Origin: Dictyostelium discoideum | Taxonomy: Eukaryota | Length of the DNA stretch: 64,000 bases | Direction of reading: 5' to 3' | NCBI GenBank assembly: GCA_000004695.1 | Contig: CM000151.3 | Coordinates: 4,064,001 to 4,128,000, forward strand | Shown here: piece after piece, positions 7,868 to 9,042 of the stretch | Layout of the letters: each line of letters begins with the position of its first letter | Numbering within the stretch: the stretch's first letter is position 1 | The notes under the pieces: model-generated | The model's input: only the letters and a program-made list of their open reading frames with translations | Database searches by the model: none | Told to the model about the DNA's origin: nothing | Program-made: the position numbers and the translations under genes

Positions 7868-8030
7868 ACAATCTGATATCCAAGATATGTAATAAAAAAA
7901 ACTAAAAAATAAAATAAAAAGTGTAATTTTTTAAAACAAAACATAATTGATGAATTTTATTTTTTTTTATATTTTTTATTTTTATTTTTATTTTTTTTTT
8001 TTTTTTACATATCTTGGATATCAGATTGGA
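7868..8030. repeat. Perfect 23-bp inverted repeat (caatctgatatccaagatatgta / tacatatcttggatatcagattg) separated by a ~117-bp A/T spacer
   Basis: Reverse-complement identity checked by eye. The distal arm overlaps the stop codon and last codons of the minus-strand LAMTOR2-like gene. Confidence 0.6.
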
Positions 8031-9042
8031 TAGAGTTTGAAAGACTTGTTAAACTACGAATTAAATCATCTTGTGAACCTAAAATTAAACCAACATTTGA
8101 TTCTGTGTCTGTGATAATTGATAAAATAACATTTGATACATTAATATGAACTATGATTCTGTCTTCAAAAAAACTAACAATACTTTTATTATTTCCTGCA
8201 TGTAATTTACTGGCCTGAAATTAAAAAAAAAAAAAAAAAAAAAAAAAGATTTCCCATAGGAATTAGTTTTAATGAATAAAAAAAAAAAAAAAACCAAAAT
8301 TCCAATCGATTCGGGTTGTTTAAAGGAAATGGAAAAAAAAAAAAAATCCAATCGATTCGGGTTGTTTAAAGGAAATGGAAAAAAAAAAAAAAATACAATC
8401 GATTCGGGTTGTACATAGGAGATTACCATCCTCCTCCCTTTCTTTTTAGTACCCCCCCCCCCCCCCCCCCCCCTATAAAATGAATATATCTAAACCCTGT
8501 ATTATAAAGAAATAAAACTTACTTGATCGGTTGCAGAAGAGAATGTTGAAATGAGTGAATTATCTATAACATTATCAGCACTTGAACTTTTATCAATAAT
8601 CTTTCCTAAAACAAAACCATCTCTATCTGAAAGGATGAGTGATGTATCTACAATACTTTTACTGTTTATTTTTATTTAACAATTTAATTATTATCATCAT
8701 TATTTTGATTATTATTATTATTATTATTATTATTATTATTATTATTATTATTATTATTATTATTATTATTATTATTATTATTATTATTATTATTATTATT
8801 ATTATTATTATTATTATTATTATTATTATTATTATTATTATTATTATTATTATTATTATTATTATTATTATTGTTTTTATTATTATTGTTTTTTTTTTTT
8901 TTTTTAAAAAAAAAAAAAGGAGTGTTATTAATGTGTTTCATCATAAAAACAATAAATAATAAAAAAAGTCCGAATCAAACTAATAAACATACTCTAAAAT
9001 GGATACTTTGATATATTCTAAAAATTCGTCAACCTTTTCCAT
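8005..9042 (-). CDS. Roadblock/LC7-fold protein, LAMTOR2 (p14, Ragulator)-like, ~132 aa; 3 exons complement(join(8005..8214, 8523..8661, 8993..9042))
   Basis: Exon 1 MEKVDEFLEYIKVSIL ends at donor GA|GTATGT. Exon 2 (D)KSIVDTSLILSDRDGFVLGKIIDKSSSADNVIDNSLISTFSSATDQ ends at donor |GTAAGT, with acceptor aaacag|. Exon 3 ASKLHAGNNKSIVSFFEDRIIVHINVSNVILSIITDTESNVGLILGSQDDLIRSLTSLSNSIQSDIQDM* follows acceptor tttcag|. All phases are consistent. The pattern resembles LAMTOR2 (VQSTLLLNNEGSLLAYSG...IASNIWAAY...[45 protein letters not shown]). It is not in the ORF track because it is split by introns. Confidence 0.55.
8287..8420. repeat. 3 tandem copies of a ~48-bp unit ((A)n ccaatcgattcgggttgtttaaaggaaatgg), third copy divergent; lies in intron 2 of the LAMTOR2-like gene
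   Basis: Direct tandem repetition seen in the sequence (8301..8335, 8349..8383, 8397..8420 cores). Confidence 0.6.
8452..8473. repeat. Poly(C) homopolymer (~22 C) on the plus strand
   Basis: A run of C's spanning the line break at 8460/8461. Highly atypical in an approximately 22% GC genome. Intronic with respect to the LAMTOR2-like gene. Confidence 0.8.
8700..8875. repeat. (ATT)n microsatellite (~58 units) inside intron 1 of the LAMTOR2-like gene
   Basis: Perfect trinucleotide run. It produces the poly-I and poly-N artefact ORFs 8639..8959 (+) and 8684..8944 (-). Confidence 0.9.

Follow-up and report, generated by a model that had tools for sequence, protein, structure and literature searches.

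A LAMTOR3 homologue gene of Dictyostelium discoideum AX4, with repeat-rich introns and insertions seen in one haplotype

LAMTOR2 is the heterodimer partner of LAMTOR3, and the Pfam families PF03259 and PF08923 are the markers that separate the former from the latter (PMC11836306). The literature naming both Dictyostelium and Ragulator is limited to passing mentions. Searches for DDB_G0274833 or for a "LAMTOR3 homolog" found no publication, and we came across no experimental study of the Dictyostelium protein.

Simple repeats make up 11% of the D. discoideum genome, where 1,436 of them exceed 100 bp, and the mean intron has 146 nt (PMC3188802). The indel rate of the species is higher than its base-substitution rate (PMC7466956). 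The survey of Saad et al. 2019 counted between 249 and 1055 motifs prone to form G-quadruplexes (G4) in AX4, with 62-157 of the 18,192 introns carrying one, and catalogued a C22 tract at chr2:4072452-4072473 among 23 very G-rich motifs (PMC6511855, Table S1a). The survey lists this tract without linking it to an intron of a LAMTOR3 gene or to its absence in other strains. Further long G/C homopolymers in the same table are at chr1:354933, chr2:738919, chr5:4800459, chr5:1814739, chr6:458691, and chr6:1152079.

Here, we describe the gene in which this tract lies, within a window of 64 kb of AX4 chromosome 2. Matching the C22 positions places this window at chr2:4,064,001-4,128,000. Its ORF 37571-38902 is identical to the AX4 protein DDB_G0274721 (EAL70253.1), a sequence recorded on AX4 chromosome 2 and on no other contig. 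The gene, the name of its product, and the C22 tract are all on record already. We read the locus, with a probability of about 0.85, as an annotated LAMTOR3 gene whose odd DNA features are mutational by-products in a repeat-rich genome, with insertions placed at sites that tolerate them for splicing.

Gene model and identity of the product

Reading and translating the minus strand from 9042 to 8005 gives a three-exon gene with consistent phases, whose 399-nt coding sequence encodes 132 amino acids (Table 1). After splicing, the translation agrees at every residue with EAL70309.1 / XP_643998.1, the product of the AX4 gene DDB_G0274833. The three-exon model put forward in the first-pass annotation is therefore exact, but the gene is not hidden, as had been claimed, since it is already annotated and its product is named in UniProt ("Ragulator complex protein LAMTOR3 homolog"). 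The same annotation had remarked that the open reading frames listed at the locus were junk, and indeed the prokaryote-style list contains only low-complexity ORFs there. A list of this bacterial style missed the gene, as exon 3 lacks a start codon in frame. An exact-protein look-up by database identifier returned only genomic contigs larger than 1 Mb and no short Logan contig with the spliced ORF. The gene is flanked on its upstream side by an oppositely transcribed RasGEF gene and on its downstream side by an RWP-RK gene.

Table 1. Coordinates of the LAMTOR3 homologue gene and of the associated DNA features (window positions unless stated otherwise)
Feature	Position	Strand or location	Details
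LAMTOR3 homologue gene, chromosome frame	about chr2:4,072,005-4,073,042		placed by matching the C22 positions
Exon 1	8993-9042	minus	50 nt; ATG at 9042-9040; phase 2 at end
Intron 1	8662-8992	minus	331 nt; GTATGT...CAG; 7.6% GC
(ATT)n / (AAT)n array	8687-8887	in intron 1	67 copies in TRF, 95% match
Exon 2	8523-8661	minus	139 nt; phase 0 at end
Intron 2	8215-8522	minus	308 nt; GTAAGT...CAG
C22 tract (G22 in the pre-mRNA)	8452-8473	plus-strand C, in intron 2	exactly 22 C
Three tandem 46/47-bp units (minisatellite)	8287-8425	in intron 2	third unit 78% identical to the first
Exon 3	8005-8214	minus	includes the TAA stop (8007-8005)
Inverted repeat (24 bp, perfect), proximal arm	8005-8028	minus	codons QSDIQDM and stop
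Four AATAAA hexamers	7956-7992	minus	16-47 nt past the stop; candidate polyadenylation signals
Distal arm of the inverted repeat	7869-7892	minus	window-specific inverted copy; 24/24 bases complementary

We compared the locus with three other D. discoideum assemblies (L001, L002, and L007) and with five related species: D. cf. discoideum (L003), D. citrinum (L004), D. firmibasis (L005), D. dimigraforme (L006), and D. purpureum (L008). In the 7 orthologous loci of the discoideum clade, exon 1 has 50 nt, exon 2 has 139 nt, and both introns are bounded by GT..AG. The two introns interrupt the gene at the same positions in D. purpureum, where they measure approximately 79 and 105 nt and where exon 1 has 47 nt with the same split codon. 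Codon differences amount to one synonymous and no nonsynonymous change within D. discoideum, and to 17 synonymous and 6 nonsynonymous changes relative to D. firmibasis. Unlike the exons, the introns are full of indels across the compared loci. The locus thus combines conserved splice sites with purifying selection on its exons, the pattern sought for a three-exon gene. Support for the splice junctions and for the 3' end comes from this conservation and from the existing annotation, and the model appears secure when the comparative evidence and the annotation are taken together.

The protein had been proposed to be the Ragulator subunit LAMTOR2/p14, to be checked by a Pfam search for the Robl_LC7 family. 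This search went against the proposal: PF03259 (Robl_LC7) does not match the 132-aa protein even at E <= 1. The single Pfam match is to PF08923 (MAPKK1_Int), with 136.5 bits for a cut-off of 25 (E 4.8e-40), and spans positions 1-117 of the 119 of the profile. A sequence search of the PDB pointed in the same direction, since all 8 matches are LAMTOR3/MP1 chains (the best being 1vet_A, 4.5e-12) and no LAMTOR2/p14 chain is among the matches at E <= 1, although such chains are present in the same entries. Around 92 residues align to mouse and human MP1, with which the Dictyostelium protein has the motifs SDRDG and STF-ATDQ-SKL in common.

The structure of the protein was predicted with AlphaFold2, using an alignment of nine dictyostelid orthologues as input (pLDDT 76.4, pTM 0.76). 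In the model, helices and strands follow each other as in a roadblock domain, alpha-beta-beta-alpha-beta-beta-beta-alpha, with predicted elements at residues 2-16 (helix), 24-29 and 34-38 (strands), 44-65 (helix), 74-79, 82-89, and 92-98 (strands), and 101-130 (helix). Relative to LAMTOR3/MP1, the C-terminal helix of the model is 8 residues longer and there is a low-confidence loop at residues 45-70. When we searched solved structures with this model using Foldseek, LAMTOR3 chains, human LAMTOR3 included, took all ranks from 1 to 14 with an identity of just 26-30%. Chains of LAMTOR2 appeared from rank 26 down, with E-values of 5e-4 to 1e-3. Hence, the part of the earlier proposal that concerned the roadblock fold and membership in Ragulator is borne out by the predicted fold and the LAMTOR3 matches.

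Could the protein nevertheless be LAMTOR2/p14, of the Robl_LC7 family? Both proteins have the roadblock architecture and belong to Ragulator, LAMTOR2 chains do come up in the fold search, and two dictyostelid orthologues are labelled "Roadblock/LAMTOR2 domain" in UniRef. Against this, the resemblance to LAMTOR2 is structural and has no counterpart in sequence-level matches, the identity to LAMTOR2 chains is 13-15% compared with the values of 26-30% for LAMTOR3, and the name given by UniProt is that of a LAMTOR3 homologue. The Pfam result, the PDB sequence search, and the ranking of the Foldseek matches together refute a LAMTOR2 identity, to which we leave practically no probability. The gene is the annotated DDB_G0274833 of AX4 chromosome 2 and encodes a LAMTOR3/MP1 subunit with a single roadblock domain. 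By homology, this protein should pair with LAMTOR2 and help to form the lysosomal scaffold of Rag GTPases and TORC1.

Repeats and the G22 tract in the introns

Both introns are approximately 2.1-2.3 times longer than the published mean of 146 nt, and repeats explain most of the excess, in agreement with what had been noted from the sequence. Orthologous introns free of these repeats still have 156-267 nt. The length of intron 1 is very variable across the eight loci of the discoideum clade (331, 279, 187, 190, 156, 452, 401, and 178 nt). Its (ATT)n array had been estimated at about 58 units; the array is real, but its longest perfect run has 55 units (8708-8872). Elsewhere, the longest perfect (AAT)n runs count 34, 3, and 3 units among D. 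discoideum strains and 6, 88, 51, and 2 units among the sister species. The suggested check for length polymorphism thus came out positive, with a range of 2 to 88 units across the loci of the clade. The 64-kb window contains three perfect AAT/ATT runs of at least 41 units, which makes this kind of microsatellite a routine occurrence.

These observations are consistent with a slippage-prone microsatellite whose expansion would be tolerated where it lies. Intron 1 has no AG dinucleotide in the 316 nt preceding its acceptor. Since the array is free of G and sits in this AG-free stretch, its expansion would create no competing 3' splice site. A TGATGA motif in the same intron suggested an intronic snoRNA, a candidate that found no support, as there was no Rfam match and no D box after the motif. 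More generally, a search of positions 7400-9400 against Rfam returned no known RNA at E <= 1.

Intron 2, which ranges from 181 to 267 nt in the orthologues, contains tandem repeats of another kind. They had been described as three 48-bp units; there are indeed three copies, but the period is 46/47 bp. Each unit contains the 8-bp palindrome AATCGATT. The window has 3 copies of the unit, the other D. discoideum strains have 1, 2, and 2, and the sister species have none. The number of copies therefore differs at the same site among strains and close species, as is the case for polymorphic micro- and minisatellites, and the unit would be a minisatellite of variable copy number. The sequence AATCG, found in all three units of the window, is a variant private to this haplotype. 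An ACTAAT motif is conserved 36-48 nt from the acceptor of intron 2, at 48 nt in the window, and is probably its branch point. Both the minisatellite and the G22 tract are upstream of this motif, in a part of the intron where insertions may be tolerated.

The G22 tract of the intron is the only run of G or C of at least 8 nt in the 64-kb window, and such runs reached at most 9 nt when the window was simulated 100 times with a first-order Markov model. The tract of exactly 22 C that had been picked out from the sequence is thus confirmed, and its length exceeds by far what chance would give at this base composition. In the alignments, it belongs to a window-specific insertion of ~32 nt, made of G22 and TACTAAAAAG, that lies between CATTTTATA and GGGAGG. 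The proposal to look for length polymorphism gave a clear answer here as well: the longest G run in the gene does not exceed 4 in any of the 8 other loci, and alignments of seven of them show that the tract is absent. To the left and right of the insertion, the sequence stays collinear with that of the other strains. A search for a template of the segment adjoining G22, covering 2.5 kb in each direction, was negative. The G22 tract would be part of an insertion found in the window haplotype only.

It had been suggested that such a run might form a G4. In this scenario, the G22 on the sense strand would fold into a quadruplex, either in the RNA or in the non-template DNA, and modulate the transcription or the splicing of LAMTOR3 in AX4. 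A run of 22 G can supply the four G-tracts that are required, motifs prone to form G4 are rare in the genome, and every predicted motif that was tested in vitro did fold (PMC6511855). Yet the tract is missing even from other strains of the species, and its position upstream of the likely branch point is one where insertions are tolerated. The published enrichment of G4 motifs in introns concerns the non-coding strand, whereas in the window the G run belongs to the coding strand, where fewer of the intronic motifs are found, and the authors of the survey judged a role for RNA G4s in Dictyostelium splicing to be extremely unlikely (PMC6511855). We consider a regulatory quadruplex at this site very improbable, and we favour the reading of the tract as a by-product of mutation.

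The inverted repeat at the stop codon

The last codons of the gene and its stop are part of a perfect inverted repeat. The first-pass annotation had found this repeat but gave it 23 bp and a partner 117 bp downstream; its arms have 24 bp and its loop 112 nt. It is the only perfect inverted repeat in the window that is not of low complexity, among those of at least 14 bp with a loop of at most 300 nt, and complex inverted repeats did not exceed 18 bp in any of 100 first-order Markov simulations, so that its length, too, is well outside what chance would produce at this base composition. Folding of an RNA spanning both arms gives a minimum free energy (MFE) of -49 kcal/mol (z = -9.8). An RNA with both arms would thus form a strong hairpin, as had been envisaged for the 3' UTR, but the distal arm may lie outside of the mature mRNA. 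The AATAAA hexamers are located 70-100 nt upstream of this arm, which begins at +116. Because these candidate polyadenylation signals precede the distal arm, the mature mRNA may not contain the hairpin.

The comparison with the other loci indicates how the repeat may have arisen. None of the six comparable loci (L001, L002, L003, L004, L005, and L006) has the distal arm. At its site, the window reads TTATTA[CATATCTTGGATATCAGATTG]TTATG and the D. discoideum assembly L002 reads TTATTA[TA]TTATG, i.e., a net insertion of 19 nt. A conserved hairpin in the 3' UTR would have both arms kept, or co-varying, in the orthologues, which is not what we observe. We also tried to interpret the plus-strand copy of the arm as a coding duplicate, and rejected this interpretation since there is a TAA immediately upstream in that frame.

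Short template-switch mutations, also called inverted templated insertions, can create perfect hairpins. The locus resembles them in several respects. Its derived segment matches exactly, in reverse complement, a sequence at a distance of 112 nt, and stands in place of 2 nt of ancestral sequence; it has 3 nt of microhomology at one junction and is absent from the outgroups. An exact reverse complement of nearby sequence that is missing from the outgroups is the trace to be expected of a template switch. The difference is that we deal here with a single event, deduced from the comparison of assemblies, with an ancestral state assigned by parsimony. The distal arm would thus be an insertion of the AX4 haplotype that originated most probably from a template switch during replication. 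The switch would have placed a reverse-complement copy of the final ~21 nt of coding sequence at ~112 nt downstream, and the trinucleotide TTA/TAA (TTA being the complement of the stop codon) may have served as the microhomology. The presence of this shared TTA in a reverse-complement insertion suggests that the hairpin is the product of one mutation and not a selected structure. Its distal arm would be tolerated beyond the likely polyadenylation signals.

The alternative is that the 24-bp inverted repeat is functional: as a hairpin of the 3' UTR, it would sequester the stop codon and thereby regulate translation termination, the stability of the mRNA, or the production of small RNAs. The length of the perfect stem relative to the simulated maximum and the strength of the predicted fold are in its favour. 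Against this, the distal arm resembles a single recent insertion, and it is missing in two further strains of D. discoideum and in four sister species, although their LAMTOR3 proteins are 95-100% identical. With the arm possibly beyond the end of the mature transcript, such a regulatory role has, in our view, only a slender chance of being correct. The template-switch insertion remains our preferred reading of the distal arm.

Both G22 and the distal arm were found in the reference only, among nine loci compared, and one may ask if G22, and possibly also the inverted arm, is an error of the AX4 reference assembly instead of real DNA. The lack of a local template for the insertion of G22 and TACTAAAAAG would fit with this, as would the observation that AX4 has few such tracts and that they are of similar length (19, 19, 22, and 22 nt). 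But the collinear flanks of the insertion, and its location in the middle of a contig, inside a well-assembled gene, are not what one expects from a faulty assembly. The haplotype also has other private variants, such as the AATCG in its three repeat units, as a real diverged allele would, and an exact reverse-complement insertion of 21 nt is atypical of sequencing errors. Hence, we regard an assembly error as improbable, and we take both features to be genuine insertions in the haplotype of the window.

Function and meaning of the unusual features

The features that attracted attention to this locus are either variable among strains and species or found in the window only, and for this reason they look like ordinary mutational debris. 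G22 and the distal arm are absent from all the other strains and species compared, and conservation thus gives no support to a function. This argues against an ancient function, but an effect on expression in the laboratory strain could still exist. If a stop-codon hairpin regulates the gene, or if a G-quadruplex is functional, this would apply to AX4 at most. A broader reading would join these elements as structure-prone gains that wild isolates lack, with the G22, the palindromic units, and the hairpin arm of the AX4 (NC4-lineage) allele of LAMTOR3 altering its splicing, 3'-end formation, or translation in this standard axenic laboratory strain. It would, as a separate point, attribute one unusual origin to the G/C homopolymers of 19-22 nt, of which the AX4 reference has five or six. 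We hold this to be highly unlikely, and retain the interpretation of an annotated LAMTOR3 gene that has accumulated by-products of mutation.

These results carry little biological weight on their own. The curiosities that remain are the origin of G22, considered together with the similar tracts of AX4, and the clean hairpin attributed to a template switch, which would be a tidy case of a perfect hairpin produced in a single mutational step. The locus also illustrates how prokaryote-style ORF tracks hide small spliced genes of eukaryotes, and finds of this type are to be expected in the Dictyostelium genome. In the case of the Ragulator subunits, LAMTOR2 and LAMTOR3 have their fold in common and yet are easily separated by profile searches. 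Finally, motifs of AX4 that are striking and improbable can be private to one haplotype, and strains should be compared before a function is proposed for them.

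Intron repeats and motifs of LAMTOR3

The tandem array in intron 2 of LAMTOR3 carries CCCGAATCGATTG in 3/3 units, and other D. discoideum strains have CCCGATTG at the matching place. The AATCG added in the AX4 units results in an 8-bp palindrome, AATCGATT. This gain is a small change of the inverted-duplication type, the second one within this allele, and it must be older than the growth of the array to three copies. Long G/C homopolymers such as the C22 tract of the same intron are just a handful in the AX4 reference and are alike in length, comprising C19, G22, C22, C19, and three interrupted runs (PMC6511855, Table S1a).

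We found the TGATGAAACACATTAATAAC motif of intron 1 in all species of the discoideum clade, where the version of D. dimigraforme is ACTAAC. In sequence, the motif resembles a branch point. However, the acceptor lies 85-356 nt away from it. The remainder of intron 1 is without AG.

Features of the region (positions in the window unless another contig is named)
Feature	Position	Strand	Remark
RWP-RK domain protein ORF	4268-5914	minus	
Non-coding block GGTCGAAATGTCTTTTCGGTAAAATAA...GGTGAATTGGTGGAGAATCCCCATATTTTG	7650-7725	minus	kept in D. discoideum strains and D. cf. discoideum
46/47-bp tandem units (n=3)	8287-8425		
Conserved motif TGATGAAACACATTAATAAC	8920-8935		intron 1, ~64 nt from 5' splice site
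RasGEF ORF	12044-16816	plus	
Family-10 fucosyltransferase ORF	17769-19274	plus	
Alpha-amylase ORF	26259-27779	plus	
444-aa ORF	37568-38902	minus	Pfam search: no match
tRNA-Leu(UAA) gene	39357-39439	plus	455 nt from 444-aa ORF
tRNA-Gly(GCC) gene	45269-45340	minus	6 kb beyond tRNA-Leu(UAA)
Divergent LAMTOR3 3' end	L007:1080-1183 and downstream flank		16-kb contig of D. discoideum GCA_054859355

The 3' side of LAMTOR3

At the locus from the D. discoideum assembly GCA_054859355 (L007), the LAMTOR3 coding sequence departs from that of all other D. discoideum strains over its final ~30 nt, as does the 3' flank over about 600 nt; homology to AX4 resumes from around window position 7440. Since the coding end is divergent, the product has 153 aa. 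The L007 sequence may stem from a haplotype that has diverged, from a rearrangement or from chimeric assembly. LAMTOR3 and the RWP-RK gene are separated by ~2.1 kb. The conserved non-coding block sits in this gap, and an Rfam search returned no match for it at E <= 1.

Neighbouring genes and an ORF near tRNA genes

Among the neighbouring ORFs, an exact-sequence look-up retrieved the alpha-amylase ORF in a Logan contig only and found none under an NCBI accession, and the AX4 annotation may therefore use a different gene model for it. The family of the 444-aa ORF has many near-identical copies in AX4 (a cluster of 17 members). The arrangement of this ORF with the nearby tRNA genes would be compatible with a candidate retrotransposon targeting tRNA genes.
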